Position numbers and translations under genes: made by a program
NCBI GenBank assembly: GCA_937999345.1
Contig: CALLBL010000005.1
Location: 8,196 to 72,195 of the forward strand
Length of the DNA stretch: 64,000 nt
Reading direction: 5' to 3'
Origin: an uncultured Candidatus Altimarinota bacterium
GTDB lineage: Bacteria; Patescibacteriota; Gracilibacteria; BD1-5; UBA6164
The notes under the pieces: model-generated
Seen by the model: only the letters and a program-made list of their open reading frames with translations
Told to the model about the DNA's origin: nothing
The model's database searches: none
Part shown: positions 1-64,000 of the stretch, one piece after another
Layout of the letters: every line of letters begins with the position of its first letter
Numbering within the stretch: the stretch's first letter is position 1

Positions 1-1332
1 TTCAAGCTTTGATTCATATGATCCAAGTCTCATAGTTCCTCATTTGTTTTGTATTTTTTTCTGTTCCTCCATGTAATCTATTACAGGATGGATAGTACTT
101 TTGTTAAATTCTGTAGAATTAGACTTATCTAAATTACACATATTTCTAGCATATTCTATAACAGCTACTTGTAATCATAAGCATATTCATAGATAAGGAA
201 TCATATTCTCTCTCGCAAAGCGAACTGCGTTTATTTTTCACTCTACTCATCTCTCTCAAAATCCTCATGGTACGAGTATGCCGTCGAGTTTTCACTGTTG
301 TCTCTCTTTTTGTAATATATCTGAGAAATCTCAATTTTCTAAGTCTTCTGAGTGTATCCAGTTTAGGTGAACCTTTGCATTATTTGCAACTCATCCATGT
401 ATGAGAGCTTCGCTAATACTTTTATATGTATCTTCAAACTCTGTATATTTTCAGATAATTCATATATTTACTTCTTTTTTAGGAGTAATTATGGTATTTA
501 CCAAACTATTCCACTTTTTTAAATCAGCTCAAGTAGTACCAAGTCATAGAGATTTTATGATGATTTTATCTAAGTTTTGAGATTTGAATAACTCTGGAAC
601 TTGGTATATGCTCTTTGCATCTACGGCTTCAATTACATTATCTATATCTACATCACAAAAATTAGAAATCTTATTTTTTATTTCTTTGCTTATATGTTTT
701 TCTGTCCTACATACGAGTATATCAGGTTGTAAACCATATTCTCTAAGCTTTATAACAGAGTGTTGTATCAGTTTTGTTTTGAGTTCTCATGAGTATTTGA
801 GATAGAGCAGAGGAGCCACGTGAAGGTAGAGTATATTTTCTTTTCCTATATCTTTTTTCATCTGTCTACTTGCTTCTAAGAAAGCTTGGCTTTCGATATC
901 TCATACAGTACCTCCAATCTCGATAATAGTAACGTCATAGTTCTTCGCTACTTTTATGATGTTATCTTTTATCTCATTGGTGATGTGTGGAATAATCTGT
1001 ACGGTTTTTCATAGATATTCTCACTCTCTTTCTTTATTTATGACACTGAGATATACTTTTCCTGATGTGATATTGCTATCGGTAGTAAAGTTTTCACCGG
1101 TAAATCTCTCATAGTTACCGAGATCTAGATCTGTCTCAGCTCCATCTTCAGTTACAAATACTTCTCAGTGTTCGTATGGAGACATAGTTCCTGCATCTAC
1201 CTGAAGATAGGGGTCCATTTTTATCATTCATACTCTTTTTCCAGATGAACCAATCAGTTTTCAAACAGATGCTGAAGTGATTCATTTTCAAAGTCATGAC
1301 ATTGATCAACCGGTAACAAATATTATTTTCAT
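1..1332 (-). CDS. pyrG: CTP synthase, first 444 codons (3' end runs off the window start)
   Basis: Table-25 translation from ATG 1332-1330: [26 protein letters not shown]...[38 protein letters not shown]. Later GILVPGGFGERGVEGKI, LGICLG and GGTMRLG glutaminase motifs. Four TGA codons fall on the invariant Gly of GG..S.LGKG. Confidence 0.95.
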
Positions 1333-1510
1333 TGCTAGAGTAGTGTTAGTGGGTAAGAAAAATGAAAAATAAAAAAAGCTCTCGCAATGGAAATAGTTGT
1401 GCGGAGTTTTTTTTTATCATAGGATGTTGTAAACATACTATAAACAAAAATATTATTTGCAAGAAAATAAAACAGCATATACTAGACTAAATACAATAAC
1501 CTATTTTTAT

Positions 1511-2602
1511 ATGCCAGAAAATAAGACAATCATCCTCCATGACACTTTTCTATACAAATGATGATGAGAAAGACTTATCATGATGATGTGAAAGGCTCTT
1601 GACGCTGATATAGCTTCTGGATTTTTTAGTGAAGGGAGCTTTAATCTCAGGGAGAACTGATTTACTGGAAAAATGATATCAGTATCATCAGAGATTTTTA
1701 AAAAATGATTCAGACATATCAAATTAAAACATGCATTTTTATTTAAAACTTCTTTTTTAAAGGAATATGATAAAGTAGTATTTAGCTGAGATTGTATAAG
1801 TGCAATAAGACAATGTAGCAAAAAAACAAAGAAAATCTACTATTGTCATACTCCACCGAGATATCTATATGATCTTCATTATCTATATTTACAAAAGGTA
1901 CCATTTCTCATAAAGCCCGTTTTCAAGATCTTTTGCGCGGTATTTAAATACATGTATGAAAAAGACATATCAAAACTTGATATGATTCTCACGAATTCAA
2001 TCAACACACAAAAAAGAATAAAAGAATTTCTCGACATAGATTCAGAAATCCTCTACCCCCCTGTTGATATGAAGCAGTTTCAGTTTATATGACAAGAAGA
2101 CTATTATCTCAGTTTTGCGAGACTTGCTGATGCTAAGAGGGTAGATAGGATAGTTCAGGCTTTCAAACAAATGCCAGATAAAAAACTCATAGTTATATAT
2201 GGAGAAAATGATCCAGCGAAACAAAAGATATTTGATCTCGCAGAGGGGAGTGATAATATACAGTTTATCACACTCAAAAATAATGTAGGTTTTACTGATT
2301 ATGTTGGAAATGCTATTGCAACTATCTATATACCGATAGATGAAGACTTTGGGATGAGCCCAGTAGAAAGTATGTCAGCTGGAAAGCCTGTTATTTGAGT
2401 TGACGATTGAGGACTCAGAGAGAGTATCGTCCATGAGAAAACATGACTATTGATAGAAAAAGAAGCTCATATAGATGATATAATTGCAGCTGTGAAAAAA
2501 ATAACTTCCAAGAAAGCTCTTTCTATGAAAGATGATTGTGAAAAAAGAGCTCGTGATTTTAGTTTAAAAAGCTTTGAAAAGAAATTAAAAAAATTAATAT
2601 AG
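1511..2602 (+). CDS. Glycosyltransferase, GT-B fold family 1/GT4 type
   Basis: MPENKTIILHDTFLYKGGGERL...YCHTPPRYLYD...ILYPPVD...FARLADAKRVDRIVQAF...EDFGMSPVESMSAGKPVIGVDDGGLRESI. Continuous only with TGA=Gly. Frame checked codon by codon from 1511 to TAG 2600-2602. Confidence 0.85.
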
Positions 2603-2607
2603 GATAT

Positions 2608-4104
2608 ATGAATAATATAAAATATTGGCAAGAAAAAATACAAGAAAAAAGAAAGCAAACTACTTTTCGAGATTTTATAATGGATATTGCGAGTTGGCAA
2701 CCAATAGTCTTTCATAAATCATCATGAATGGTATCGCGTTTTCCAGAAACTGATAGAATGAAAGAGGTTATTAAATACTCTGATTATTATAAACAGGATT
2801 CAACAGAATATCTCTATGGTATAGATTATGATGATTCAAAAAATATCTTTCAAAACTATGCTGATCTCAGAAAGCATGTGAAGGGAATTAATATGATTAA
2901 TTTTTTTAATAGCGAAAATAGCGAATATGCTGATGTTGTCAGTAAATGAAAAAATATTTATCTTTCAGCTTTTATAGTAAATGGGGATGAAGATGTAATG
3001 TATAGTTTTTGAGTAAACGACGAATCAAAGCGTATTTTAAATAGTGCTATTATCTCTGATCATAGCGAGAATGTATATTTTTCACTTGCAGTACAGCATT
3101 CATTTAAAGTTTTTTATTCGAGATATATCAATAATAGTTCTGATATATGGTTTTCAACCAATCTCCTTTGATGTACTCACTGTATAGCTTGTCATGATCT
3201 AGAAAATAAATCATATCATATAGAAAATGTGGAATACTCAAAAGATGAGTACATGAAAAAAAGAGATGAATATCTCCAAGATAAAAATCCATATCATGCT
3301 AGATATCTTTCTCTCGTGAGTAATGCTTGAAAACATCTAGCAAGCTCAAATATAACATGATCATACTGAGTAGAATCAGAGGATATAGAGTCAGCACATT
3401 TTACATATAGAATTTCAGGAGGAAAAAATGTATTTAACGTATGATGATTTGAATGATGCCAAAATATATATGATGTTTTTGATGGATGAGGTCCTTCTCT
3501 TCAAGATATATATGCTGTTAATGGTATAGCTATAAATTCTGAAAACTGTTATACGAGCTGTCATGTGCCAAATTGTAATACGGTTTTCTATAGCTATTAT
3601 CTCGAATCATGTTCATATTGTATCTGATGTATAGGACTTCAAAATAAATCCTATTGTATACTCAATAAACAATATACTAAAGAAGAGTGGGAGATATTAG
3701 CTCATAAGATATTTACTCAAATGGAGTCAGAATGAATTCTGTGAGAGTTTTTTCCATGAGAACTGAATCCATTTTACTTTAATGATACTATGGCTGGTAT
3801 TCTTGGTAACTTTACTCAAGATGAAGTAGAATCACAAGGATACATGTGGAGAGACCAAGAAATAAAAGTGGATATACCAGAGAATGCTGATGTAATATCT
3901 GTTGCTGATTTAAAGCATTATCAATCATATGATGACTGAAGGTGGAATATAAATCCAAGTATTCTGAAAAAAGTGATACAGGATGAAAAAGGAAATTATT
4001 ACAGAATCGTACATATGGAGTATGACTTTTTAATGAATTATTGACTCCCTCTTCCAGAGATTCATTGGCTTGATAGGATGAAGCTCAATTTATGAATTAA
4101 ATAA
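2608..4104 (+). CDS. Cys-rich hypothetical protein (repeated CxxC...N-K-S-Y-x-I motifs), 498 aa
   Basis: Frame verified across the whole span (about 24 in-frame TGA, no TAA/TAG). Repeats such as LGCTHCIACHDLENKSYHIENVEY and SCSYCIGCIGLQNKSYCILNKQY. No family recognised. Confidence 0.7.
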
Positions 4105-4110
4105 TTAAAA

Positions 4111-4136
4111 AAAGACCTCAAGCGAGGTCTTTTTTT
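4111..4136. terminator. Bidirectional intrinsic terminator between convergent genes
   Basis: AAAGACCTC-AAGC-GAGGTCTTT hairpin flanked by an A-run and a T-run. Confidence 0.7.
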
Positions 4137-4147
4137 ATATTAATTTT

Positions 4148-4498
4148 TTATGCCATAGCTGCTAATGCTTCAGCTTCAGTTTCTACAGTCGGAATAATAG
4201 TAGTGATACCAACGAGTTCAAGTACATCTTTTACTCCTTCGTCACAGTCACTGATATACATAACTCCATCATTATCTTCGATGTTTGAAAATACATCAGC
4301 TATGTAACCAATAGATTTTGAGTTGAGATATTTTAATCCTTTCAAGTTGAATAGGAGTTTTGTATCTGAGAAATCTCCTATTTGTTCATATACAGAAGTA
4401 AAAGTCTTATCTGCATTGGTTTCATCAAGTTCACCTGCAAATTCAAATACGACTACTGAACCTTCTTGTCTTTTTTGTATTTCTATTAACGTTTCCAT
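4148..4498 (-). CDS. STAS-domain protein (anti-sigma-factor antagonist, SpoIIAA-like)
   Basis: Intact 116-aa ORF without TGA. VVVFEFAGELDETNAD...LLFNLKGLKYLNSKSIGYI...DVLELVGI has the STAS/SpoIIAA layout. No partner kinase or anti-sigma gene nearby. Confidence 0.75.
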   Translation of the reverse strand: METLIEIQKRQEGSVVVFEFAGELDETNADKTFTSVYEQIGDFSDTKLLFNLKGLKYLNSKSIGYIADVFSNIEDNDGVMYISDCDEGVKDVLELVGITTIIPTVETEAEALAAMA

Positions 4499-4583
4499 GT
4501 ATTAAAGTTTTACTTAAATAATAGTTATGTGTATATTATATACCAAATAAATATTTTAAGCAAATTTTAGCCGAGTTTAAAAA

Positions 4584-5003
4584 ATGAGTATGAAAAAGAG
4601 ATATAATTTAGATCAAATACAAGATCTTGAGATTGATATAAAATTGCCAAGTATTGTGTTCTTGAAGTGAGGCTTATGAGCCGGAAAAACAACCCTTTCA
4701 CAGCATATTATCAGGGATATGTATAGTATTACTAGTGATATAACTTCTCCTACTTATACGTATTATAACAAGTATATATCAGAGAGGGGAGAGATATACC
4801 ATTTTGACCTATACAGGATTTCTGATTATGAAGAATTTATTTATATATGATGAGAAGAAATTCTCGATAATAATACTGGCCTGATACTGATTGAGTGGCC
4901 AGATATTCTCAAAGATACCTATGAAGCTGATATAACTATCGACATATCAATCACATGAAATGCAAATGAAAGAGAATTATCTATAACAAAAAGAGGAGAA
5001 TAA
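4584..5003 (+). CDS. tsaE: tRNA t6A biosynthesis ATPase TsaE (YjeE)
   Basis: VFLKGGLGAGKTTLSQ...SPTYTYYNKY...IYHFDLYRI...LILIEWPD are the TsaE signature motifs. The stop lies inside the hairpin AGAGGAGA-ATAAA-TCTCCTCT followed by a T-run. Confidence 0.85.
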
Positions 5004-5029
5004 ATCTCCTCTTTTTTATTTGATGATTA

Positions 5030-6541: not shown

Positions 6542-6543
6542 AA

Positions 6544-8013
6544 TTATCTTCTTTTTAGGGTAGTAAATGTTTTTAGTATTATCTTTATATCGAGTATAAG
6601 ACTCCAATTTTCTATGTAGAATATATCTAGTTTTGCTTCTTTCACAAAATTATTTTCAGCCCTTCAGTTTACTTGAGCCATTCCAGTGATTCCTGGTTTG
6701 ATAGTAAGAAGTCTTTTTTGATAGAGTTCATATTTTTTTACTTCTCTGGGTTGGTGTGGTCTTGGCCCAACGAGACTCATCTGGCCAAGTAATACATTGA
6801 AAAACTGTGGAAGTTCATCGATGGAGTACTTTTCTATATAGGTTCAGATTTTTGTTTTACGTGGATCATTTTTGATTTTATAAAGTGGTCCATCTCTTGC
6901 GTCATTTTCCTTGATGAGTTTTTGTTCATACTTCAGTGCTGGATCTTTTTTATTTTCTATTCAGTAGGCTTCTTTTATACAGTATTCCCATTTGAGATAT
7001 CGAAACTTATAGAGAAAAAAGCTCGTTCAGTTTTGTCCTATTCTTGTATTTTTATATATGATTGGAGCTCTTGGATCTTCTAGCTTGGTTATGATGGCTA
7101 TGATAATCATAAGTGGGCCAAATATAATAATTCATAATAGGCTTCAGACGATATCTGCAGCTCTTTTAATGACTCTTCACCAGTTATCCAGAGGGGTGTT
7201 TTTTATTTCTATTACTGGGATATTATTGATAAGCGACATAGTAGTGTTGGCAGCTGTTACGTCAAAGACATTGGTTACATATCTATATCTGATGCCAAAT
7301 ATCTTACTGAGATTCCAGATTCCAAGTAGCTCTTTTTTTGTAAAATCACTATCTATATGAAGGATTTCGTCACATTTTCAGTTTTGTATGAGTTTTTCTG
7401 TCTTTTCTATTCATCAGAGGTATTTTACCTTGTTTTTGAGATTTTTTGTATTTACATATCAAGTTATTTCATATATGCCAGAGTTTTTGATATCTTCTAA
7501 AAAAGGAATGAGTTTTTTAGAGTCTTTATTACTAATAAGCAGGAGTTTTCTTTTTGGTATGATGTTTTTTGTGAGCATATACCTTTGTACATTATTGAGA
7601 AAAATCCTTTCAAGGATAACTCCAAGCGTAGCAAATATAAACGTAAAAAATATAATAAGTCTTGGTATTTCAACTCAGGTATAAATAATACCATTTCAGA
7701 GGTAGACTCAGACAGCAAAGAATAAAAACCAATATATACCATACCTAATGATATCAAGAAATTCTTTTACTTTAGAGTGAATTATTTTGATATTATAGAG
7801 TCAGTGGGTAGAAAATAAAAATACATACAAAAGAGCTCATAAAAGAGCAAAATAAACTAGATTTTCAACTTCTATCGTTTGTATAGGAAGGTTTATTCAA
7901 GGTATGAGGTCTGTGATGAGCCTGAGTTTACGAGCAAGAAAAAAACACAAAAATACTATCGCAAAGTCCAAAGGAACTTTTACAGCACTGAAAAGTATCT
8001 CGTGTTTTTTCAT
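6544..8013 (-). CDS. Polyprenyl-phosphate sugar-phosphate transferase (bacterial sugar transferase, WbaP/exopolysaccharide priming type)
   Basis: C-terminal [27 protein letters not shown]...[46 protein letters not shown]-terminal TM helices. Its TAA lies 2 nt before the next ATG. Confidence 0.9.
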
Positions 8014-20005: not shown

Positions 20006-20079
20006 GGTGCCTTGGTAGAGTGGTTATACACGGGTCTGCAACACCCTTCACAGCGGTTCGAACCCGCTAGGCACCTCCA
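20006..20079 (+). tRNA. tRNA-Cys (anticodon GCA), CCA encoded
   Basis: Acceptor GGTGCCT/AGGCACC, T-arm AGCGG-TTCGAAC-CCGCT, anticodon loop CTGCAAC, discriminator T plus CCA, 74 nt. The weak D-stem is typical of tRNA-Cys. Confidence 0.85.
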
Positions 20080-23270: not shown

Positions 23271-25784
23271 TTATTTAAGTAATGCTTCTTGAAGTTTTAA
23301 TAGTCTTTCTATTTCCTCATTTTTACCTCCTTCAATTATAAGTGTTTCCTGTTTTTTTTCAATTATATTTTTTACTATTATTGATAATTCTCAAGAGTCA
23401 AGATTTTCAGGTGTTTTATTTATTTCTTCTATTCATACAATTCTAGCTTCTCAGATCCCTCTTGAATTATCTACATAATTTATATTGGGTACATCTCTAG
23501 AGTTTAATTCATTCATTACATTTCTTACTTTTTTATATGTTTCTTTATAATATGAAACTCATACTGGCCTCCCAGTTTCTATTGCTCTTTTTACTATAGA
23601 TTCCCGTGCTTGTATAGGATCTCTATGTATCATATCAATATCTATATTGTGAATATTTGCTTTATTCGCCTCATTTTGTAAGTAGTCAATAAATCTTATA
23701 TCACTTAGTGGTGAATCAAATGTTATATCTGCTTGTCTATTTCGTGAATTTTCTACTACTTTTCCAGCTGAAGATTTTCATGATCCTGGTGCACCTCATA
23801 TTAATCTAATTCTAGAATTTATATCTCATTCTATTCCAAGTAGGAGTAATCTATAATGTATTTTGCTTAATTTTTGTACTATTTCATCAAATTCAGAACT
23901 ATTGAATCACTTATATTTTATAAAAATTTCTCTAAATGCATCGGGATCAATAACCTTTCAATTTTTAGCTGTATATATTGAAAATAATTCTTTTAATAAT
24001 TTATTTCAAGATACTAATTTTAAGACTTCCTCATGGCTTATAGATTCTTTAATAATAAATCATTTATCTTTATCAAAAATTTTAACAAATCATGGTATCT
24101 GTTCTAATTTGTCTATTGAAAGATCTAACTCAAGTATTCTTGATTTTATAGTTTCCGAACCACAAATATTATTATCAAGAAGCTTTCTAATATCTGTATT
24201 ATCAAATCCTCCTTGTTTCAGCGTTTTTACTTTCTTAGAGATATCCGAGATTGGATACAAACCATCCTCTCATCTCTCTCAGATCCTATGAGCCTTTATA
24301 ATTGCTTTTTTCTCTACGTCTTTTAGGTCTCTTCATAGATTTAATACACTTACAGCCTTATCTAATCGATCTATATCATCAGCTGAGAAGTCTAAGTTTT
24401 TCGTTTCTTCTACTTTCCCAAACAACATCTCCTTTATCTTCTTCACAGTATCTGGGCCTATCCCCATCTTTTCTCACATATCAGCAAAGCTTTTCATCAG
24501 AACACTTGGTTTTATTCTTCCAATTGCTTTTCAAACTTTTCAGAGTTTTCCAGCCTTTACTAAGCCTTGTACTCAAAATGCAGTAGCTCATAAACTTATT
24601 AGTCATATTAACCATTCAGCTGGAAACTCTTCCATATGAAACTCTTTTGGTACTATTCCTGATGCTTTCAATCATTTCATCACTCCATCCTGATTGGTGA
24701 GAGTACTTGTTAAATCTGCTGGCACACTCGTCACTGCTCCTGCATAAGGAATGAGTTGAGAAAGAACCGTTATGAGATATGCTACCATAGCATCTGATTG
24801 TATAGCTTGATCTGCTTCGCTGAGCATAGTTATCTCACGAATAGTAGATATATCTCATCCCATAGCTTCAAATCTTTTCATATGTCATCCCATATTTACT
24901 TGGAGGGTATCTATTTGAGCCATGCCATTGAAACCAAGCTCATCAAATTCTCAGCTCTTTGTATCTACTGGTGCATTAAACATTTCTTGAGCCTCAGATA
25001 TATTTCTCCCAAGCATACCTCTCACTATATTTTGTCTTTCTTCTATTGTTACGGTTCTTGAAGGTATCATATCTGAAGCAGGAAGCTCATATTCTTCAAA
25101 TTCCATACTCGCTATAGTATTTTCTATAAATACTTCTCTACTTTCTGCTTTGCTATACTCTTGAAGCATAAAGGCACTTGGAAGTATCTTATTGTTTATT
25201 TCTCAGAGATTATCTTGGATTTTTACATTGAGTATCCACCTCTGACCTGCTATATCTTCAGGATTGTTTTTCTTAATTTTCTGTACTATGTCTCAAATTT
25301 TTGAGATACGTATTCAGATAGAGGCTATTATTTTATTTTTTATTTCAGGCTGCAGCTCTGCTAAATCATTCTCTATATAATCCTTGTATCCACTTAGATA
25401 CTGAGAAATATCTAAGTTCAAACCATCAGTTGTTAGTTCTTCGTGAATAGAAACCAAATCATTGATTCAAAAATATTCTCATAGTGCTCATAGTGACTGA
25501 ATTTTCTCTCAGGCTTGTTCCATTATCTGTGGAAGATTCATACTTTGCATTTGAGAAACAAGAGCTTCTCAGATTTGTGATTGTTTTAGGTGTAGCGCGC
25601 TCGCAAATAAGGGATTAGATGAGGCTAAACTTGATACTATATCACGAGTTTGTTCTAAGTTTCCATCCTCAGCTATAGCATCTATACTTTCCATATCTCA
25701 CTTCAATAAAGCCTCAGAATGTATTGCTTGTACTTCTGGACTTATGCTTGGTCATTCGAAATATTCCGTGTTAGCTTGTTCCAT
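23271..25784 (-). CDS. 837-aa protein: unknown helical N-region, hydrophobic hairpin, C-terminal Zeta-toxin-like P-loop kinase domain
   Basis: Whole frame scanned: no TAA/TAG. Walker A RLIGGAPGSGKSSAGKVV (nt 23769-23798), then ADITFDSPLSD and NIDIDMIHRD. Hydrophobic AMVAYLITVLSQLIPYAGAV and EWLIGLISLGATAFGVQGLV. ATG overlaps the upstream TAA (TAATG). Confidence 0.75.
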
Positions 25785-34419: not shown

Positions 34420-36183
34420 ATGTTAAGAACGCACAAGTGTAATGAACTTACCAAGGATAATATCGGAGATGAAGTAACACTCTCTGGTTGGGTAAGCAAC
34501 AGAAGAGATCATGGTGGAATTATCTTTATCGATCTCAGAGATAGATACGGACTTACTCAAGTAGTTTTCGATCCAGAGGATGATAAGGCTTCATGGGAAA
34601 TGGCTGATAAATTTAGAAGTGAGTATGTAATCCAGGCAACTGGAAAGGTGAGAAGTAGACCAGACGGACAAACCAATCCAAATATGGAAACAGGGGAAAT
34701 CGAGGTAATTATATCAGAGGTAAAACTCCACTCAAAATCTAAAACTCCACCATTTGAACTAGATGAGCATGCAACCGAAGCAAACGAAGATATCAGACTC
34801 AAATATCGTTATCTCGATATTCGTAGAAAAAAGATTCTCGATTATATCAAGTTCCGTAGCAAGATGACTACCTATACAAGAAACTGGTTTACTCAGAAAG
34901 ACTTCCTCGACGTGCAGACTCCTATCCTTGCTAATTCTTCTCCAGAGTGAGCCAGAGACTTCCTAGTACCATCTCGTATCCACCCAGGACAGTTCTACGC
35001 ACTTCCTCAAGCACCTCAGCAGTTTAAGCAACTCCTCATGGTTGGTGGTATAGATAAATACTTCCAAATAGCACCATGTTTCCGTGATGAAGACCCAAGA
35101 GCAGATAGACATGCTGGTGATTTTTATCAAGTTGATTGTGAAATGAGTTTTGTAGAACAATCAGATGTATTTGATGTAGTCGAAGGATATCTACTCGATA
35201 TAACCAAAGATCTCTCAGATAAAAAAGTGATAACAGAAACAGCTGCAAATGATGTCATCAGAGAAGGAGGGAAGTTTTTTACTCTTACTCATCATGAAGC
35301 AGTAGAAAAATACTGATCAGACAAACCAGATCTCAGATTTGGTCTCGAGATGGTAGATGTACTTGATATATTTGCGAGAAGTACCAATGAAATATTTTCA
35401 GGTATCGCAGCTTATCCAGTAGCAAATAGAATCAAAGCTATCAAAGTACCAAATGGAGATAACGAATTCTCAAAAACTCAAATGAAAGGATTTGAAAGCT
35501 ATGTACGCAAGTTTGGAGCAAAAGGACTTGGGTATTTTCAAATGAAAGAAGACTGACTCAAAGGGCCACTGAATAAATTCTTCGCAGAAGCTGATTTAGA
35601 AGAAATAGTAAGTAGAACTGGACTCGAAGTTGGTGATGTAGTATTCTTTGGAGCAGGTGAGAGAGATCTCGTGTGTAACTATATGGGGAGATTTAGAAAT
35701 TATATAGCAGATATGTTAAAGCTCGCTGATAAAGATGAGATTTCTTTCTGTTGGATAACTGACTTCCCGATTTTTGAACAGGATGAAGATACAGGAAAAA
35801 TAGACTTTGAACACAATCCATTTTCTATGCCTCAGGGATGAATCGCAGATTTTGATAAAGAATGAAAAGATCTTCTCGATGTGATCGGATTCCAATACGA
35901 CCTCTCATGTAATGGATATGAAATTCTCTCAGGAGCTATCAGAAACCACGATGTAGATGCGCTGGTAAAAGCCTTTGAAAAAGTAGGAAGAAGTGCAGAG
36001 GAAGTAAAAACCAAGTTTGGGGCTGTATATGAAGCGTTTCAATATGGAGTTCCTCCACATGGATGATTTGCTATCGGTATCGATAGACTCATGATGATAT
36101 ATGTAGATGAGCACAACATTCGTGATATCTATGCATTCCCGAAATCAGGGAAGGCTCGTGATGAGATGATGAACTCTCCTATA
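34420..36183 (+). CDS. aspS: Aspartyl-tRNA synthetase (bacterial type); conserved C-terminal tail continues in another frame to 36239
   Basis: OB domain [84 protein letters not shown]. In-frame TAG at 36181. The expected tail LAVEQEQLDELHLEI is offset by one base. Confidence 0.9.
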
Positions 36184-36243
36184 GCTGTGGAACAAGAACA
36201 ACTCGATGAACTGCATCTAGAAATAAACGAAACAGAATAAATA

Positions 36244-38459: not shown

Positions 38460-38600
38460 GTTTACTTGCTTTTCTGTAAAAACTTATATAATCCTGATAC
38501 TTTACTTTTCATAATAATTCTATACGACTTCCGATATAGGGAGACCTCGAGAGCGATGCCAAGAGGAATAGAATTATGAAATGATATCACCTGTCAAAAA

Positions 38601-39974
38601 ATGCTCGGAAAAATTACTATTATTGGGAGACCAAATGTTGGGAAATCTAGTTTCTTTAATATGTTTGTTGGACACAAGATCGCTGTAGTCGCTGATGAAG
38701 CTGGGACTACGAGAGATATATCAGAGTTTGAATACGTAGATCCAGATACAGAACTGACTTATATAATCTGTGACTCTGGATGATTAGACTTCTCATCTGA
38801 GGCTGGAGAGATAGCAGCAGATATAGTCGATAGAACCAAAACTGCTATCGATGAGAGTGACCTCATCATCTGGCTGGTTGAGTACGATAGATTTACAGCG
38901 CTCGACGAAGAGATATATAAAACCATCAAGAAAAATAAAGACTCAGATTTCATCCTCGTTGCCAACAAGTGTGACAACGAAAATCAACTCATGGAGTCAT
39001 ATAGTATTGCTGGAAAATGAGAAAAAGAATTTTTCCCAGTATCAGTTTCTCATAACAGAGGTATCACAGAGGTAAAAGACTATGTAAAAAAACATCTCAA
39101 ATCAAAAGGACTCGATTATAAAAGAGAAGAGTTTGATGAAGATCATATCAAGCTTGCTATTATCGGGAGACCAAATGTAGGGAAATCAAGTATCATCAAT
39201 ACGATCGTCGGAAAAAACAGAGTGATGGTAAAGGACCTCTCTGGTACGACTCGTGACTCTATCGATACCAAGATGGAATACAAAGGTAAGGACTTCGTCC
39301 TCATCGATACAGCTGGTATCAGAAGACTCTCAAGAGTTGGTACGAGAAATATCGAAAACTGGTCTATCATGAGAACAGAAAGATCACTCAAAAGAGCAGA
39401 TATCATCGCAGTGGTGGTAGATGGTTTTGAATGAATCGTACAACAGGATCTCTCTATCATATCGAGAGTACTCGAAGAGAAAAAGGGGCTCGTAATCGTC
39501 GTAAATAAATGGGATAAAGTACTCGCAAAACCATGAGTTGATAAGGATCATATGATGACGAGATATATCACATATCTCAAGGAGAGAATAGAATTCCTCC
39601 CATGGGTTTCTGTAGTATTTACCTCAGCAACTGAGAAAAAGAGACTCGAAGAAATACTCGATAGAGCTCTAGAAATAGATGTAGAGAGAAGAAAGAGAGT
39701 AAAGACGAGTATCTTTAACGAATTCCTAGAACAAGTGACTTATAATCATGCTCCAACTGGGAATAAGAAATCTCATAGCCCAAAGATATACTACTGATCT
39801 CAGGTTGATACGAACCCACCGAAGTTTATGGTTTCGGTAAATAACCCAAATCATTTTCACTTCTCGTATAAGAGGTATTTAGAGAATAAAATCAGGGACA
39901 ATTTCTGATTCTTTGGGACTCCGATAACGATAGAGTTTAAGGGGAGAGGGAAGCATAAGGATAAAGTGAAATAA
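38601..39974 (+). CDS. der: Ribosome-associated GTPase Der (EngA), two tandem G domains plus KH-like domain
   Basis: [13 protein letters not shown]...GTTRD...DSGG...NKCD, and [13 protein letters not shown]...GTTRDS...DTAG...NKWD. C-terminal [11 protein letters not shown]...[18 protein letters not shown]. Confidence 0.92.
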
Positions 39975-40122: not shown

Positions 40123-40524
40123 ATGCTTGAAATTACACCGGAATTATTAAAAGAAAGATGACTCACTCTTGCTAATAATAGACTTCCATACAATCCAAAA
40201 CTAAACGATAGAGCGAAACAAATGAGAGCAAATATGACTCGCGCTGAAAAAAAGCTCTGGTTTGATTTTCTAAAAGATTACAAGCACAAGTTTCTCAGGC
40301 AAAGAGTTATTGATAATTATATAGTAGACTTTTACTGTAGTGAATTAAATCTGGTGATTGAACTTGATTGAGATTCTCATTATCAGGATTGAGCTGAGGA
40401 GTATGATGAAGAAAGAACAAATATCTTAGAATGATATGGACTCAAAGTTATCAGATTTACGAATAATCAAGTGTATGATAGTTTTGAGGGAGTGTGTGAT
40501 ATTATTAAGAATAATTTGAATTAA
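40123..40524 (+). CDS. DUF559 endonuclease-domain protein (Vsr-like fold)
   Basis: LPYNPKLNDRAKQMRANMTRAEKKLWFDFLK...FLRQRVIDNYIVDFYCSELNLVIELDGDSH...RTNILEGYGLKVIRFTNNQV. Confidence 0.85.
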
Positions 40525-41269: not shown

Positions 41270-41296
41270 AAACCTCCCTTTTGGGAGCTTTTTTAT
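41270..41296. terminator. Bidirectional intrinsic terminator
   Basis: CTCCC-TTTT-GGGAG flanked by A and T runs. Overlaps the aclA stop. Confidence 0.55.
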
Positions 41297-43080
41297 TCAT
41301 ACATTATATCATCCCAAGGAGTTCTATACAAGCCTTCTCCAAGTCTCTTCTGATCAATTATATGTCAGATAAACCCAGTCGTTCTCGCGAGGATAAACAG
41401 CCCGTTAAATATCCCAGCTTCAATATACTCCTGAATCTCTTCATAACTCATCCCGATATCACTCATGATATCTAGAAGCATCGCAGCAATCATACCATCT
41501 ACATTGAGAATCAGATTTGATCTCTTTTCGAGAGTGATAGACTCTACCTCGAGTGCAAAGTCGAGATGCGTTCTATTTGGGAAACTTTCAGCGAGTTCGA
41601 GCATGATCTCACATCTCTTATCTGGATTAAACTTAGATTTTACCTTGTGTCCGATTCCTGGTATATATTTTCATTTTTTCTTCATATCACTTACAAACTG
41701 ACGAGGTTCCACTCCACTCTCCACAGCCGCAGAGAAGCACTTCCCAGCTCAGTCGATAGCACCTCAAAACCTCGGTCCGATAGTTGTGAGTCCAGCGATG
41801 AGTGATGACTTGAGATCGTTTCCAGCTCTCGCTGTGACGATAGCATTAGTCGCTCCAGATACTGCTGGTCCGTGATCTGCTAGGAGTATGAGAACAGTAT
41901 TGATAAAGTCTTCAGCGTATGCTGGTAAGTCTCTTTTGAGCCAGAGATTTCCAATCACATTTGCAAAGCTTCACTTAGACGTATATTCAGAGATTGCTTT
42001 TTTATTGTAGTGAAGTTCTTCTCCTCTTTCATCACTGATAGTTGAAGTAAATCTGGTTTTTGATCTTGATTGTATTTTTTTTACCTTTTCGAGAATTATA
42101 TCGTGGCTTATAGTTTCTTTTTCTGGAAATGAACCAACAATTTTTTTAAATGTTGCTTCAATTTTGTCTCAGAAATCCATGTAGTTTTCTGGAACAATCG
42201 CTCCAGCCTCTCTAAGCGTTTTGTTTTTATAATTAGCTGTTTCTTCTAATGCATTTGATTTTGCTCCAGCATGACCAAACTGTACTTCTCCAGATATCTG
42301 ATCGTCTATGGTTCAGATACACCAAGCCACAACAGGTTTAGTGATTTCTCATGTACGAATCATTTCAGCAATCTCGAGTTCCGATACTCATCATACCTCT
42401 CCTAGCATGACAATCATTTCTATTTCATCATCCTCTTGGTATAGTTTAAATACATCTTTAAATTCCATAGCATTGTACCTGTCTCATCAGAGAGCAATAG
42501 AAACAGAACTTCAATCTGCTCTATCATAAGACATTCTTCTTAGTTCATTACTCATTCATCCTGATTTTGAAACCACACCAACACTTCCTGATTGATAAAG
42601 TCTAGAATCAACAATATTTTTTATACTTCATCCAGTATTTCCTGCCCTGAAAGCTCCTGCTTTCATTCATCCCACTGTTGCTGGTCAGATGATATTTAGG
42701 TTCTTTTCTTTATTTCTTGCGATAATTTCACGCGTTTCTCTTTCTGGTATTCATTCTGCTATGATAACTATATTTTTAAATATACCTGTTTCCATAGCAT
42801 CGATAGTCGCTTTAAAAGCACTCCTATGAGATGCAAAATTTACCATAGTATCCACTTTTTTTTGAATATCAGCAGGGATACTTCTAAATGTACTATAACT
42901 AGGAATAAATAACTCTTTGTCACCAAAGAATATTTTATGATTTCCATTCTTCGTACTTTGAGGATTCAGTATAGCGAGAACAGACGGATCTCTTCAACAT
43001 AGATAATCAAAATCAAGCATATTTTGAATAGCCTTTAGTTGGAGTCCGTATACGATAGAAAAAGTATTTTTTGAAAACAT
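41293..43080 (-). CDS. aclA: ATP-citrate lyase alpha subunit (CoA-ligase plus citrate-synthase-like domains)
   Basis: GVVSKSGGMSNE, catalytic-His loop [74 protein letters not shown]. 595 aa. Confidence 0.85.
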
Positions 43081-43082
43081 TA

Positions 43083-44288
43083 TTATAATTTTATTTCTTT
43101 TAAAATATTGGTCATATAGTCGCTACTTCAAGCAACAGTACAGTTTATTCCCATCTTTTCACATTCAGATTTCAAGAGAGGAAGTCATATTTCTTCTTGT
43201 ATTCATCATCTTCTTACGAGTATTTTTATATCTCTATCTCTAAATTCATCTTGAAAGTCTTTAATAGCTGCGACAAATCATCCAAAAGTAGTAGCAATAT
43301 TTGTGAAGTTAGCTATTACTCATCCTATGATAAAGTATTTTGCATTTGGAGATTTAAACATTTGAGAAAAGAAAGTCTTTGTATACTCATAGGTATTCTC
43401 AAAATCAGGACCACCAGCTAATTCTCAATAGTTTCAAAGCTCATCAGCATATCAAAGGGCACCTATTGTATCTGTGAAAACAAGACTCGCTCATCCTCAG
43501 GCTATGATAGTCCATATGCTTCATTCAGGATTGAGGATTTTATGTTTCATGCTGGCACCAGTTTTTTCATCAAGCTCTCTTATATGTCTTTCTGATGGCT
43601 CTTCTTTGAAGCCAAGAGTAGGTGGGAATACTAAATCTTTCCAATGGTTTTGTTGTTTGAAATGTTCTTGGTCATCGAGCTTGGCTACCATGTCGAGGAG
43701 GACGATATCACCAGTTTCCTGATGAAAACAAAACGGATTTACTTCGAGGTATACAAAACCATAGTCTTTGTAATATTTCCAGAGATCCATGATAACTTCG
43801 ATGATATCTTTGTGTGCTATTCAGAAACTCTCTTTTAAATCAGACTCTTTTAGGTCTTCCATAGTAGGGATATCTATAGATGTGACACTATCCCAGTTTG
43901 ATTCGACTTCGACTCATCCAGCTTCTGAGAAGTGCACGGTGTCAGCATCTCTTCCTGCTTGGAAAGATATGTAGTACTCCTTGGTATGTGGAGTAAACTC
44001 TTCTGCGAGAAATACATCGAGCGTACCATCGACTCATGAGACTTCTTGCTTCTTCCCAAGTTTCTTTTCGAGCCATTTTTCCGACTCTTTTTTATCGAGT
44101 CCGACTCCTACGAGCCCGAGTTTTCATCTTCACCCGAAGAGCATATCTGGCTTGAGGACATAGCTTTTATCTTTATCGAGTTTTTTTACATCCTTGATAT
44201 CATCTATCAGGATTCATTTGTATTTTTTTCAGATAGATTCAAAAAACATTCTCTTTGCATCAAACTCTCTTATTCCAACTTGTGCCAT
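43083..44288 (-). CDS. aclB: ATP-citrate lyase beta subunit (ATP-grasp)
   Basis: MAQVGIREFDAKRMF...VLKPDMLFGGRGKLGLVGV...YLEVNPF...LDMVAKLDD...IWTIIAGGGASLVFTDTI...GNYGELAGGP. 401 aa. Its stop lies 2 nt before the aclA ATG. Confidence 0.85.
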
Positions 44289-48068: not shown

Positions 48069-51638
<3,570 letters not shown>

Positions 51639-51679: not shown

Positions 51680-55711
<4,032 letters not shown>

Positions 55712-56260: not shown

Positions 56261-56290
56261 AAAATACTCTCGCGATGCGAGAGTATTTTT
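56261..56290. terminator. Bidirectional intrinsic terminator
   Basis: AAAATACTCTCGC-GAT-GCGAGAGTATTTT. Confidence 0.75.
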
Positions 56291-56298
56291 TAGTTCTT

Positions 56299-56676: not shown

Positions 56677-56841
56677 GTGTAAACAGTTAGGATTTAATAT
56701 TTATTTTTAAGTATCTATATAAATTATATCAAACTCTTTAAAAATTTGCAAAAAGAAAATATCAAAATATACTTAAATTATATTCTGGGTGATTTGCTTG
56801 TATACTTGTTTTGTTACCTGTTTACCATATAAGTTGTAAAA

Positions 56842-57090
56842 ATGTTTTTTGTTTATTTTGGTATATATACTTTTGTTCTCGCTATTTTGTGGGGGTTTTT
56901 CATGCTCGCAAAGCTCCATTCCTACAAATTTAAATCATTTAGTAAAAATATTGAAAAGGTCACTACTGTGCTATTAATATTCCTTATTTCACTTTCTATT
57001 TTAGGGTATATTTTGATATTTTTTCTCGATACTGCACCTGCAAGTTTTGAAATCACTCCAAACGAGAGAATTCAAGATACGTATTACTAA
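56842..57090 (+). CDS. Small membrane protein (82 aa)
   Basis: Two hydrophobic helices. Intact ORF ending in TAA. Confidence 0.55.
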   Translation: MFFVYFGIYTFVLAILWGFFMLAKLHSYKFKSFSKNIEKVTTVLLIFLISLSILGYILIFFLDTAPASFEITPNERIQDTYY

Positions 57091-57107
57091 TATAAAACTC
57101 ATAGTTT

Positions 57108-57425
57108 ATGGCTTCTATATTTACCAAGATTATTCAGCGTGAGATACCAGCTGATATCGTCTATGAACAGGATAACATTATCGTGATTCGTGATATAAAT
57201 CCACAGGCAAAGACGCATTTACTGATTATTCCTAAAAAAGAAATCCCTACACTGAATGATATAGTAGATGATGATAGTGAGCTCATGTCAGATATGTTTC
57301 TGGCTGCCAAGAAAGTAACTAAAGACCTTGGTATAGATGAGTGATATAGTCTCAGGCTCAATGTATGAGAAAAATGAGGACAAGAAGTATTTCATATACA
57401 TATGCACCTCTTGTCAGATATATAA
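57108..57425 (+). CDS. HIT-family (histidine triad) nucleotide hydrolase
   Basis: IFTKIIQREIPADIVYEQDNIIVIRDINPQAKTHLLIIPK...GQEVFHIHMHLL contains the HxHxHxx motif. Confidence 0.85.
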
Positions 57426-57440
57426 AAATAAAAAATACCT

Positions 57441-58772: not shown

Positions 58773-58778
58773 AAAAAA

Positions 58779-58806
58779 GACTCTCACGTGAGAGCCTTTT
58801 TTTTTG
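58779..58806. terminator. Bidirectional intrinsic terminator
   Basis: GACTCTCAC-GTGAGAGCC palindrome between an A8 run and a T9 run. Confidence 0.7.
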
Positions 58807-58816
58807 TGTTTTAAAA

Positions 58817-59122
58817 TTATTTACTGAGTCCTTCTTTGAAGTGATCAAAAAGGTGATTAACAAGATCATCCATGTTTTTATAGTCTTCTCTTTCATATCT
58901 AAATGATTGACCATCAAGTGTTGCTTGTAGTACTCAATTAAATAGATTTTTCTTGTTTTTATCTATTTTGATTTCGAGTATTCATTCTGCATCATCTTTT
59001 TTATCAAATTGTTTTAAGTAGTTATCTACTTTTGAGTTCAGGTTTTCTTGTACGAGTCTTTCGATTACTTCCTTTGAGAAGTCTACTTCTTTTCCTGCGT
59101 GTATTTTTACTTGTAATTCCAT
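58817..59122 (-). CDS. hpf: Ribosome hibernation promoting factor (short HPF/RaiA/YfiA type)
   Basis: 101 aa. MELQVKIHAGKEVDFSKEVIERLVQENL...ILEIKIDKNKKNLFNGVLQATLDGQSFRYEREDYKNMDDLVNHLFDHFKEGL has the beta-alpha-beta-beta-beta-alpha pattern of sigma-54 modulation/HPF proteins. Confidence 0.8.
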
Positions 59123-59202
59123 ATTTAGTATTTGTTTTCTTAAAAAAATATAAGTACACAAAAATGATACTACAAACCCATATGCAAATCAAATAAAAAA
59201 TA

Positions 59203-59598
59203 AAAAAAAAGCCCAGCCGAAGCTGGGTGTCTTCACGAAGGAAGACGAGAGAGAATTTTAGCATCCAATTCTTAGTGAATGGTTTGCTTTTATTCCAACC
59301 TCTAGACTGCGCGATGTGGAGCACGACAAGTCTAGAGGGGCTACCGACAGATGGGCTGGTATCTGTCAGGTAAATTTCTCCAATATAACCAGGGCTAAAT
59401 CTGACTATATTGGAGACCACTAATGCGACAGTACCCTAAGGGAAGACATTAGTGAGTCGGTACACTGGCGAGAGCCTACCAACATGGTGAGCATTGCTCG
59501 CAAAGCTTGTTTCAAATTGGGGGTTGAAACGTACAAGCTCTGCGAGCACAGGAATGAAGCGAACTTCTTCCTAAACTCTTGGTAAGTAAAACTTACCT
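59203..59598 (-). ncRNA. Unassigned ~395-nt GC-rich, highly structured RNA gene with its own promoter and terminator
   Basis: At least 9 stable hairpins, e.g. a 16-bp stem UGCUCGCAGAGCUUGU/ACAAGCUUUGCGAGCA, an 11-bp stem UCUCCAAUAUA/UAUAUUGGAGA and a 10-bp stem CCUCUAGACU/AGUCUAGAGG. Ends in CCCAGC-UUCG-GCUGGG plus U9. No plausible ORF. Confidence 0.6.
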
Positions 59599-59605
59599 TA
59601 CAAAT

Positions 59606-59633
59606 ACTATAAATATAAATATATATAAGTCAA
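59606..59633 (-). promoter_or_regulatory. Promoter of the structured RNA
   Basis: Minus strand: TTGACT (59633-59628), 16 nt, TATAGT (59611-59606). Confidence 0.5.
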
Positions 59634-59737
59634 ATTTAATTTAAACAAAACTACTTAAAATAATAGAAAACAATTTTACAAAGCTCTCTAGAGCCATATA
59701 CTCGTATCTATAGTTTTAATATTTACAGATAAAAAGT

Positions 59738-61171
59738 ATGGAATACGAAAAGGTAATCGGTCTCGAGATACATATGAGAATAAAGTCTCAAACCAAGATG
59801 TTTTGTAGCTGCAAGAATGCGCTCGAACTTGCATCTGAGCCAAATGTAAACGTATGCCCAGTCTGTATGTGATTTCCTGGTATGCTTCCAGTGCTCAATA
59901 AAGAAGTAGTAAGGCTTGGTTTACTCTGAGGTATGCTCATGGGATGCGAAGTAAATAAACACTCTCGTTTTGATAGAAAGAGTTATTTCTACCCAGATTC
60001 TCCTATATCATTTCAAATTACTCAACTCTATGAACCTATCGTATGAGCTTGATCTGTAAAGGCTCTCGTAGATGGAAAAGAAAGAGATTTTGCTATTCAT
60101 CATATGCATCTAGAAAACGATGCAGGGAAACTCTCTCATGCAGGAGGAAAGACTCTTTGTGATTTCAATCGTGCTGGAAGTCCACTGATGGAGATAGTAA
60201 CTGATCCAGTTTTTCATGAAAAAGAAGAAGTAATGGAGTTTCTGAAAGAACTTCAAAAGATGATGCGTGCAGGATGAGTGAGTGATGCAGATATGGAAAA
60301 AGGACAGATGAGATGTGATGTAAATATGTCTATTCGTCCAAAAGGGAGCAGTGAACTCTTTAATAGAACTGAGCATAAAAATGTAAACTCATTCTCAGCT
60401 ATCGGGAGATGTATCGATGCAGAGTTTAAAAGACAAAAAAAGATAGTAGATTCATGATGAGAAGTAGACCAAGAAACCAGAGGGTGGAATGATGATACAG
60501 GTATGAGTAAATCTCAGAGGAGCAAAGAGGATGCAATGGATTACAGATATTTTCCTGAACCAGATCTCTTGCCACTCGACTTGGATGAAGACTTTATACA
60601 GTCATGTAGAGATTCTATGGTTGAGCTTCCTATACAAAAGAGGATAAGATACCTCAGTGAGTATAAACTCCAGGATGATGATGCTAGAATACTTACTAAG
60701 GATAAAGAGCTGAGTGAATACTTTGAGAAACTAGTAGAACTTACCTCAGATGCAAAAAAATCATGTAGTTATATCACGACAATATTACTAGCACTTATGA
60801 ATGAAAAAGGTTGAACTATATCTATATCAGATCTCAAGTTTGATATATCTGAGTTTGCTCAGGTTATAAAGCTAGTAAATGCTGATGAACTCTCATCAAC
60901 CAACTCAAAACAGGTAATCGAAGAGCTCTATAATAATGGATGAAAAGCAGATATCATAATAGATGAGAATAACCTCAGACAAAAAAATGATCTCGGTGCT
61001 CTCGAAGCTATAGTAGATGAGGTCATTGCTGAGTTTACATCTCAAGTAGAGGATTATAAATGAGGAAATGAAAATATATTCTGATTCTTTGTAGGACAGT
61101 GTATGAAAAAGAGTAGAGGACAATGAAATCCAAAGGTATTTAATCAAATGCTCAAGAAAAAATTAGGGTAA
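59738..61171 (+). CDS. gatB: Asp/Glu-tRNA amidotransferase subunit B
   Basis: [13 protein letters not shown]...KMFCSC...[17 protein letters not shown]...[10 protein letters not shown]...ITQLYEPI...[11 protein letters not shown]...[15 protein letters not shown]...[11 protein letters not shown]-terminal YqeY-like tail. Confidence 0.93.
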
Positions 61172-61190
61172 TCAGAGTTACTCTCAAACA

Positions 61191-61226
61191 AAAAAGCCAA
61201 AAAGTAAAACCTTTTTGGCTTTTTTA
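61191..61226 (+). terminator. Intrinsic terminator
   Basis: AAAAAGCCAAAAAG-TAAAAC-CTTTTTGGCTTTTT. Confidence 0.75.
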
Positions 61227-61314
61227 TGTGTCCATATCTTGCAGGAGGATAAAAACTATGATACTCTGATAGTATAGTTATAAATAGCTTTAATAGTAAC
61301 GTACGTATACACAC

Positions 61315-63591
61315 ATGAATGTATCAAAAATAAAATCTTTCTTTTTGGATAATAAAAAATCGCTTTTTTATACAGTATTTTTTCTTTTTTCATTTTTTCT
61401 TTTTAGTGATTTAGCTTTTGCTAATAATGCTACATGAGGAACTTGAGAAAGTGACACCATAAATGAAGTGATTAAAGTAGTAAATTATATACTAGTGATG
61501 TCATCAGCCTTATTATGAGCTGCTACTGCTATGATATCGTTGTTTTTAACACCAGGTTGGGTGAATGGAACTATTTTTGGCCTTGATTCATATATGAAAG
61601 ATATGTGGATTATGATTTCAAATATAGTTTATTTTGCTTTTGCATTCATACTTATCACGATAGCATTCATGAATATCATATGAAAATGAGATAAATGGGA
61701 ACTTAAATCTGCGTTACCTAAATTTATAGTGTGAGTAGTAATGGTTCCATTTACGTGGTTTTTCGTACAATTTATTCTTTCTATATCTGCTATACTGACA
61801 GTATGAGTTCTTACACTTCCATATGATTCTTTTGAATCAAAATCAACCTATCAAGATGCAATAAAACAGATGGAAGCAATTATCTCTAATCCAGAAAATC
61901 AAAATACTTCATGAGATCAAGCTAACGAATGAATACCTACCACTTTCATATTAAATCTTTCTCAAAATCTTGTTCCAGCTAGTTGAGAAAATGGAGCGTC
62001 AGTAAAAAAGAAAGAAGAATTTCTAGTGCAGTGAAACGATAAAAAAATAACTGAAATACTAAAATGAGATGGTGCATCAGGTCATGAAAATAGTATATTT
62101 TGAGTACTCGGATTATATACATATGGTATAATGCAAATTCAACATTTAGATACAGAAAATGGTTGGTTATTCTGAGAAGCTATTAGCGATATTACCGATA
62201 TGACTCTCAAGTTAGTTTTTGATGCTCTATTTATCATAGTGTATTTAGTGCTTATGATTGCTCTTTTCTTAGCATTATTAGTAAGAGGAATAAAGCTTTG
62301 GGTATATGCTATGTTGTCTCCAGCGTTTGGATTACTTTATTTCTTTGATAAAACTGATGGAGTATGATCTGGGAGTGCTAAATTTGGAATAAAAGATTTC
62401 ATATCTCTTGCTCTTGTCCCAGTTTATGTAGCTGCAGCATTATCATTTGGACTATTATTTATAATGGTATCGAGTCATGGTATGTGAACATCCAGCTTAT
62501 TAGCAAAATGTACAACTGAAGATTTAGCTGGTATAGAATCATCAGTTTCTCCAGACAAAATGAACTGTATGAATATAGGTTCATTTACGTTTGCTATTCA
62601 ATGAGCTGTCTGAGAATCAACTTGATGAGCTCCTTCAGGATGAGCATTTGGAAGAATTATTATGCAATTATTTGGTATTGTTGTATTATGGTTGGCTGTG
62701 ATGATGGCATTAAAACAATCTGAAATAACTGAACAAATTGCTAAACCAATTTGAGACTTCTGAAATAGTGTATGATGATTGGTTGCTAAATCACCTATGT
62801 ATGCACCTATAATACCTGGAGGATTGAGTGTGACGTGACTTAAGAGTGCTTGATCTACTGTTACTTCTGCTGTTGAACAAAGATCTTCTAGACAATGATC
62901 TGATTTTGCACAGCAGAATTTCCCATGATTATTCTGAGAAAATTTTAAGAAATTAAATGATGCAACAATTAATCTTAGAAGTGCTGCACAAGATATGGAT
63001 AAGTATAATAGATCAAGGGAGTTAATAGCTACAGCATGAAGTGCCCAAGCCTTAGCAGATAATAAGCCAGCAAGAGAGGCTTTAGCTGACGCATTTAAAT
63101 CTATCAGATCATGAGCTTTTGGTTTTGATGTATCTGAAGAAAGAATTGACGAATTAAGAAATGCATCCTCAGCTGATGCAGTTAGATGAATACTTAGAGA
63201 TATTGAAAGAAAAGCAAGAAGCGAGCAACATACTATTTTATGAACTAGATCTGAAAGAGATGTTCAAACATCAGATCAAGTTGATTCAGCTATTAGAAGA
63301 ATGTCACCTACAGAAAATCCAATAGAAGCAACTCTGTCGTCTTCGCCTAGCTCAGCACAAATCCAACAAGTTACTAACAAGGCTTGAGATCAAATAGATC
63401 TAAATATAAATCCAAGTAATAGTGCTAGCGATATAAGTAATAACATTAGAACTACACTATGATTTAGTCAAAATGATGTGATTGATTCTTCAACTCTTAC
63501 AGATATCAGGAATAAATTAGATGACATTGATGATCTAGATGGTAAAGTTGATGCGATAATAACATGATTGAAACCAACTTCTACCGATTAA
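61315..63591 (+). CDS. Large multi-pass membrane protein (758 aa) with long hydrophilic C-terminal tail
   Basis: All 758 codons checked (many TGA, no TAA/TAG). Signal-like N-terminus, at least 8 hydrophobic helices, Gly-rich loops, Ser/Asp/Asn-rich tail. A VirB6/TrbL-like role is only a guess. Confidence 0.65.
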
Positions 63592-63602
63592 TAATGATTA
63601 AA

Positions 63603-63630
63603 AAATCTCTCCCATTCGGGAGAGATTTTT
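63603..63630 (+). terminator. Intrinsic terminator
   Basis: AAATCTCTCCC-ATTC-GGGAGAGATTT plus a T-run. Confidence 0.75.
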
Positions 63631-63830
63631 TATTATATATTTTTGCTATAAACTCATATAAATCAATTATCTCTACCCCAGGGCACTATCTCTTATTTCT
63701 TCGAAATAATTCACCTTGTACTCATGCTATATTGAGCTTCCTGATGTTTTCAGGAGCAAATATAAGTATGTTTGCAATTTAAAGCGAATAGATTAAAATG
63801 TATAGTAATTGATATATAACTTATATAAAC

Positions 63831-64000
63831 ATGAAAGTAGTAATAAAGAAAGATGGTGACGGTTTTCTTGCAGAAGTAGAATGACATGATAATGTATATG
63901 CATATGGAGCAACAGAGTCAGAAGCAAAAAGTGAGCTTTTAAAAGTTATTGAGATGATGATGGACTTTCATCTAGAACAAGTAGAGAATGATAGAAAAAT
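63831..64000 (+). CDS. HicB-like antitoxin-fold protein (UPF0150), partial at the window end
   Basis: MKVVIKKDGDGFLAEVEGHDNVYAYGATESEAKSELLKVIEMMM fits the HicB N-terminal pattern (G-x-Y/F-x-A-x-V...G-x-T-x-x-EA). Confidence 0.55.

Follow-up and report, generated by a model that had tools for sequence, protein, structure and literature searches.

UGA as a glycine codon and CGG as a probable tryptophan codon in a Patescibacteria genome of the Gracilibacteria (BD1-5) type

The stretch of DNA analysed here, hereafter the window, comprises 64,000 nucleotides (nt) of contig CALLBL010000005.1 from an uncultured bacterium (assembly GCA_937999345.1), and the question addressed is the genetic code with which its genes have to be read. 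Analysis of the window and of the whole assembly to which it belongs (35 contigs, about 1.07 Mb, 33% GC, 97.5% complete) indicates, with very little room for doubt, that UGA is an ordinary glycine codon in this genome, as in NCBI translation table 25. That UGA specifies glycine here is correct and already known, and it brings no new principle. The sequences also point to a second reassignment: the code of the organism, and of most members of its GTDB family, is quite probably table 25 with CGG as tryptophan and CGA still as arginine, a combination that is in no NCBI table. An earlier note, made from the letters of the window, had proposed code 25; the proposal stands for UGA and is probably incomplete, since CGG behaves as tryptophan.

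TGA as a sense codon

Translation of the window (32.6% GC) from stop to stop in six frames under table 11 produced a single open reading frame (ORF) of at least 300 amino acids (aa). When TGA was read as sense, the same count rose to 28, with the longest ORFs reaching 1,349 and 1,193 aa, which is the outcome of the comparison of ORF lengths across codes that the earlier note had proposed. The effect goes far beyond what chance would give and is specific to TGA, because reading either TAA or TAG as sense left the count at one. In the non-overlapping set obtained with table 25, 61 ORFs occupy 93% of the window, TGA is present in 57 of them (619 TGA against 747 GGN codons) and all the complete ORFs terminate at TAA or TAG only, which bears out the earlier statement that the genes are interrupted by TGA and never by TAA or TAG. 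The list of ORFs supplied with the sequence had also been described as broken, and rightly so: the 31 ORFs of at least 120 aa that table 11 gives consist of 15 in-frame fragments of real genes, 15 antisense artefacts and one ORF out of frame. Annotation of the contig under table 11 is wrong for the same reason, as it yields gene fragments together with antisense ORFs. The window as a whole and the genes whose TGA codons are discussed below are as follows.

1..64000, no strand: whole window with TGA read as glycine; 61 ORFs, 93% coding, stops TAA/TAG
1..1332, minus strand: pyrG (CTP synthase), 3′ end beyond the window; 25 in-frame TGA
34420..36240, plus strand: aspS (aspartate-tRNA ligase); 6 in-frame TGA
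38466..39974, plus strand: der (GTPase EngA); 7 in-frame TGA
48069..51638, plus strand: rpoB; 15 in-frame TGA
51680..55711, plus strand: rpoC; 20 in-frame TGA
59738..61171, plus strand: gatB; 12 in-frame TGA

Any sense reading of TGA opens the frames equally well, including tryptophan, as in table 4. The amino acid was assigned from the residues that occupy the TGA positions in related proteins. The codon coordinates that the earlier note had quoted in pyrG, rpoB, rpoC and aspS are all correct. In pyrG, TGA codons 9, 13, 15 and 17 fall inside FVTGGSMSGLGKGI; in rpoB, the TGA codons at 48429, 49086 and 49413 are G121, G340 and G449, and LGGKAQNGGQRFGEME holds three further ones (G1036, G1041 and G1046); the TGA at 34948 in aspS is G177 of SSPEGARDF and that at 54068 in rpoC is G797 of SGARG. 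The orthologues used for comparison come from genes whose reading frames are unbroken under table 11, which leaves no doubt about their own code: 71 RpoB and 79 RpoC sequences from Saccharibacteria, Actinomycetota, Bacillota and others, and 35 PyrG sequences from standard-code Patescibacteria. Glycine accounts for at least 83% of the residues in 12 of the 15 TGA columns of RpoB and for at least 94% in 15 of the 25 of PyrG, and it is the top residue in 14 of the 20 of RpoC. Tryptophan was found in none of these 60 columns. When only the columns conserved at 90% or more in the three proteins were considered, TGA fell on glycine in 27 of 28 cases, on alanine in one and on tryptophan in none, and TGG fell on tryptophan in all five cases. 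In the conserved columns of RpoB, RpoC and PyrG, all the other codons follow table 25.

Scoring against protein family models gave the same result. With TGA translated as glycine instead of tryptophan, the score rose from 568.2 to 652.8 bits for PyrG (model NF003792; +84.6), from 1421.3 to 1468.6 bits for RpoB (+47.3), from 1439.4 to 1491 bits for RpoC (+51.6) and from 539.2 to 563.0 bits for GatB (+23.8); the table-4 translation is thus the poorer one by 24–85 bits per protein. The comparison was then extended to the whole genome with the help of G143, a complete genome from the same GTDB class that uses the standard code. Among 3,135 TGA codons aligned to it, 50% met glycine, which compares with 60–65% glycine for GGA and GGT and with 56% tryptophan for TGG, and tryptophan was outside the six residues most commonly aligned with TGA. 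In an empirical likelihood calculation, for which only alignments showing the mismatch pattern of a coding frame were used, glycine was the best assignment for TGA over 12,700 comparisons, with serine 23,345 bits and tryptophan 48,891 bits worse. Codon counts for the genome amount to 9,650 TGA, 756 TAA and 146 TAG; TGA is the most used glycine codon, with about 44% of all glycine codons. The claim that TGA specifies glycine is therefore upheld by columns that match glycine and never tryptophan or the ends of alignments. The reading of TGA as tryptophan is refuted by the same column counts and is left with a very small probability. Adopting it for annotation would place tryptophan instead of glycine at about 3% of all codons.

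The earlier note had suggested searching the rest of the genome for a tRNA-Gly with a UCA anticodon and for the loss of prfB, the gene of release factor 2 (RF2). Both are found in this genome.

C8:1104-1182, minus strand, outside the window: tRNA(UCA)

The acceptor stem of this tRNA (GCGGGGG/CCCCCGC) and its discriminator U provide G1:C72, C2:G71, G3:C70 and U73. Identical elements are present in the tRNA-Gly(UCC) of the same genome, and they are those used by Shulgina and Eddy (2021) as criteria for tRNA-Gly(UCA) (PMC8629427). The tRNA-Trp(CCA) of the genome, in contrast, has A1:U72 and G73, which further argues against table 4. Each of the 15 genomes sampled from the same order has the tRNA(UCA), at 81–100% identity, and in those 15 the UCA anticodon is invariant and the acceptor, anticodon and T stems show compensatory changes. 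A BLAST search with the tRNA(UCA) in two other recoded families of the class (f80 and f92) gave no match, which for a 79-nt query reflects a limit of sensitivity and is no sign of absence.

RF2 is the only release factor that recognises UGA. The genome has a single gene for a class-I release factor, which scores 435 bits with the prfA model, above the cut-off, and 254 bits with the prfB model, whose cut-off is 370. The gene encodes the PET and GGQ motifs, lacks SPF and carries nine in-frame TGA codons of its own; no second release-factor copy was found by tblastn in this 97.5% complete genome. prfB is thus absent and prfA, encoding release factor 1 (RF1), is present. The absence of RF2 fits tables 4 and 25 alike. 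Taken together, the observations suggest that RF2 would have been lost and that UGA would afterwards have been captured by a tRNA-Gly(UCA), its use then growing until it overtook every other glycine codon. At present, the dedicated tRNA(UCA), with its bacterial identity set for glycyl-tRNA synthetase (GlyRS), would insert glycine at UGA, and RF1 would terminate translation at UAA and UAG, the only stops in use. We infer that GlyRS charges the tRNA(UCA) and, likewise, that decoding of UGG by this tRNA is in some way avoided.

Some points weigh against the assignment of UGA to glycine. In a minority of the TGA columns, the orthologues vary or contain alanine, asparagine, aspartate or lysine; GGN codons at non-conserved sites behave in the same way. 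ARAGORN labels the tRNA(UCA) as 'SeC', a label that derives solely from the anticodon. Lastly, for this organism the assignment is read from the genome sequence. Selenocysteine at TGA was rejected on the 9,650 TGA codons and on the structure of the tRNA, which has a 7-bp acceptor stem, a short variable region and no long extra arm, no search having been aimed at the genes of the Sec machinery. Still less probable than the tryptophan reading is that TGA would be a true stop and the genes pseudogenes, products of programmed read-through or sequencing errors, since nothing beyond the presence of in-frame TGA speaks for it, and it is contradicted by the roughly 9,650 in-frame TGA of the genome lying specifically on conserved glycine positions, by genes that are never interrupted by TAA or TAG, by the same pattern in independently assembled relatives and by the absence of RF2.

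Lineage of the genome and distribution of the recoding

The RpoB loci nearest to that of the window (70–81% identity) belong to metagenome-assembled genomes (MAGs) titled Candidatus Gracilibacteria, Peribacteria or Patescibacteria group, and rpoB is interrupted by TGA in eight of these nine loci. On sequence grounds, the genome is of the Gracilibacteria (BD1-5) type within Patescibacteria. The nearest relatives are MAGs named Gracilibacteria that show TGA recoding, a tRNA(UCA) and the loss of RF2. In a set of 151 genomes from the GTDB class, pyrG contains in-frame TGA only in the family and order of the window (f1, f70 and f71) and in f80 and f92. A match to the prfB model above the cut-off is absent from the genomes of these same five families, and 112 genomes out of the 151 have RF2. 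Because TGA in pyrG and the loss of RF2 are distributed together among the relatives, the recoding appears to have been inherited within a known recoded clade.

UGA as glycine was described in Absconditabacteria by Campbell (2013) and in Gracilibacteria by Rinke (2013), and the GTDB orders that use table 25 are BD1-5 and Absconditabacterales (PMC13695967). In another BD1-5 bacterium, proteomics confirmed UGA as glycine in 2014, the highest stringency giving 40 peptides for glycine and one for tryptophan (PMC4032931).

Two side observations concern naming and gene content in the group. One MAG, Candidatus Gracilibacteria bacterium CG12_big_fil_rev_8_21_14_0_65_38_15 (locus L005, PCUR01000030.1), has an rpoB 71% identical to that of the window with no in-frame TGA. 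This MAG, named Gracilibacteria at NCBI, appears from its sequence to use the standard code, a case in line with the mismatches of naming that the gTranslate paper describes. The PyrG of the window is only 39–46% identical to the PyrG of genomes of its own family and 55–57% identical to that of another family of the same order and of a different recoded family, and five genomes of the window's family are without any pyrG match. This pattern suggests replacement or loss of the gene within the family.

CGG as a candidate tryptophan codon

Shulgina and Eddy (2021) predicted that CGA and CGG have both been reassigned to tryptophan in Absconditabacteria and CGG in some Gracilibacteria (PMC8629427). 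In the genome analysed here, CGG is nearly extinct: it makes up 48 of 322,557 codons (1.5 per 10,000), and CGA and AGA occur 184 and 8,418 times, respectively. The sites of interest are the only CGG in a credible gene of the window and the only tRNA of the genome able to read it.

23604..23606, minus strand: sole CGG among the credible window genes (codon 727; ORF of 837 aa, 23271-25784); arginine under table 25, tryptophan favoured by the evidence from the whole genome
C3:70459-70535, plus strand, outside the window: tRNA(CCG), the only tRNA of the genome able to read CGG

The meaning of CGG was approached by aligning this genome with that of G184, which is complete and belongs to the same family. 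Spurious evidence, coming from antisense ORFs and from ORFs inside ribosomal RNA (rRNA) genes, was identified by the mismatch rates at each codon position and removed. A CGG/TGG pair in the antisense ORF C33:16012-16977 was rejected on this basis, as it reflects a synonymous change of a proline codon, CCG/CCA, on the opposite strand, and CGG/CGG 'arginine' pairs from ORFs inside rRNA genes were discarded as spurious. In the real-frame alignments that remained, no CGG was paired with an arginine codon in either direction, and eight CGG/TGG pairs were retained under a strict filter, whereas CGA was paired mostly with AGA, AGG and AAA. The pooled likelihood for CGG (39 comparisons) was best for tryptophan, with tyrosine 79 bits and arginine 158 bits worse. 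The CGG codons of the genome itself provided 12 comparisons, a small count, in which four residues were tryptophan and none arginine; tryptophan was again best and arginine 29.7 bits worse. For CGA, with 93 comparisons, arginine was the best assignment. Individual sites were also compared with solved structures. The CGG of MiaA sits on the tryptophan of RQ(L/I/F)TW(F/L), a residue that does not vary among four solved structures of MiaA; at the CGG site of an alpha/beta-hydrolase, the residues aligned from the PDB were alanine, lysine and histidine, which is not decisive.

The tRNA that would decode CGG as tryptophan is conserved and structurally odd. It was found in 27 genomes, 26 of the window's family and one of f71. 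A1:U72, G73, the D-loop AATTAGAA and the T-loop TGCAATT recur in all 27 copies, and the stems show many compensatory changes. A1:U72 and G73 are the elements of tRNA-Trp, and the tRNA-Arg(UCU) and tRNA-Arg(CCU) of this genome have A73. The D-loop lacks G18/G19, so that the base taking position N20 is ambiguous and may be A.

The main alternative is that the code is exactly table 25, with CGG still arginine and the CGG–TGG pairings produced by C-to-T mutation pressure in an AT-rich genome. The tRNA(CCG) keeps C35 and G36, an A stands where A20 would fall in its 8-nt D-loop, and arginyl-tRNA synthetase (ArgRS) tolerates G73; ArgRS may still meet an A20-like base in the odd D-loop. One of the CGG codons, that of a TraG-like ATPase, lies at a position where arginine would be plausible, and the own codons of the genome are represented by just the 12 comparisons given above. 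This alternative is nevertheless unlikely, considering that not one CGG site stands opposite an arginine codon when CGA so often meets AGA and AGG, that the likelihoods favour tryptophan in both sets, that the MiaA site is an invariant tryptophan and that the acceptor end of the tRNA is like that of tRNA-Trp in 27 of 27 genomes. Table 25 plus CGG as tryptophan is accordingly the reading that we prefer. If it is true, a sense-codon reassignment would be stacked on a stop-codon reassignment, and the split between CGG and CGA would differ from the joint change of both codons predicted for Absconditabacteria. Confirmation would mean that some dozens of residues in each genome are mistranslated under table 25, the catalytically conserved tryptophan of MiaA among them, and the stepwise reassignment of CGG proposed by Codetta would gain a second and independent data point from the family.

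Other features of the genome and comparison with known codes

Code 25 is essential as an annotation instruction, and all the other findings in the window need to be read under table 25. These include the following.

6544-8013, minus strand: sugar-phosphate transferase gene, 489 aa
10146-11393, plus strand: protein of 415 aa that carries a bacterial fibrinogen-like YCDxxxxGGGW domain at residues 225-268 (NF040941)
20006..20079, plus strand: tRNA-Cys(GCA), sole tRNA in the window
40123-40524, plus strand: small, isolated DUF559 protein (Vsr-type endonuclease-like), flanked by der and an unannotated gene
41293-44288, minus strand: adjacent pair of genes for proteins of 595 and 401 aa

An Rfam scan of the window at gathering thresholds gave nothing besides the tRNA-Cys. 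In the gene pair at 41293-44288, the 595-aa protein combines succinyl-CoA-ligase-alpha-like and citryl-CoA-lyase/citrate-synthase-like domains and its 401-aa partner resembles succinyl-CoA ligase beta. From its domains, the pair looks like an ATP-citrate lyase, which is unexpected in so reduced a genome.

Outside the window, other tRNAs deserve mention. A tRNA-like gene at C27:32997-33071 (minus strand) has a normal cloverleaf and a CCA end, U1:A72 and G73, and a 6-nt anticodon loop (GAUCAA), and was left unassigned by ARAGORN; it lacks a homologue in G184, a complete genome of the family, and may be either a tRNA in decay or something out of the ordinary. In G184 (loci L219-L278), the glycine tRNAs are UCC and UCA only, with no GCC, and therefore GGU and GGC must be read there by four-way wobble. 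In sister families, a tRNA-Gly(GCC) adjoins the tRNA(UCA) (L215 and L218). The arginine tRNAs of G184 are UCU, twice, CCU, GCG and CCG, none of which reads CGA by standard rules.

Among known codes, table 4 (UGA as tryptophan) is used by Mycoplasmatales and several insect endosymbionts. The situation described here is similar in that a stop codon has been captured by a tRNA(UCA) once RF2 had been lost from a reduced, AT-rich genome, and differs in that the amino acid is glycine, not tryptophan, and the identity of the tRNA comes from tRNA-Gly. The closest system is table 25 itself, described for SR1/Absconditabacteria and Gracilibacteria (Campbell 2013; Rinke 2013; Hanke 2014), with which this genome shares UGA as glycine, the same identity elements of tRNA-Gly(UCA), the loss of RF2 with retention of RF1 and a small AT-rich genome of CPR (candidate phyla radiation) type. 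No difference was seen for UGA; what this genome probably adds is the change of CGG to tryptophan. In this respect it resembles the Codetta prediction (PMC8629427), in which CGG is very rare, aligns with tryptophan and has a tRNA(CCG) with G73 and A1:U72. The strict rule of Shulgina and Eddy for tryptophan requires G73 and no A20, with A/G1:U72 as a supporting feature (PMC8629427), whereas the D-loop of the tRNA(CCG) studied here may hold A20. A tRNA(UCG) was not found in this genome or in its complete relative G184 and, unlike in the prediction for Absconditabacteria, CGA appears to be still arginine.

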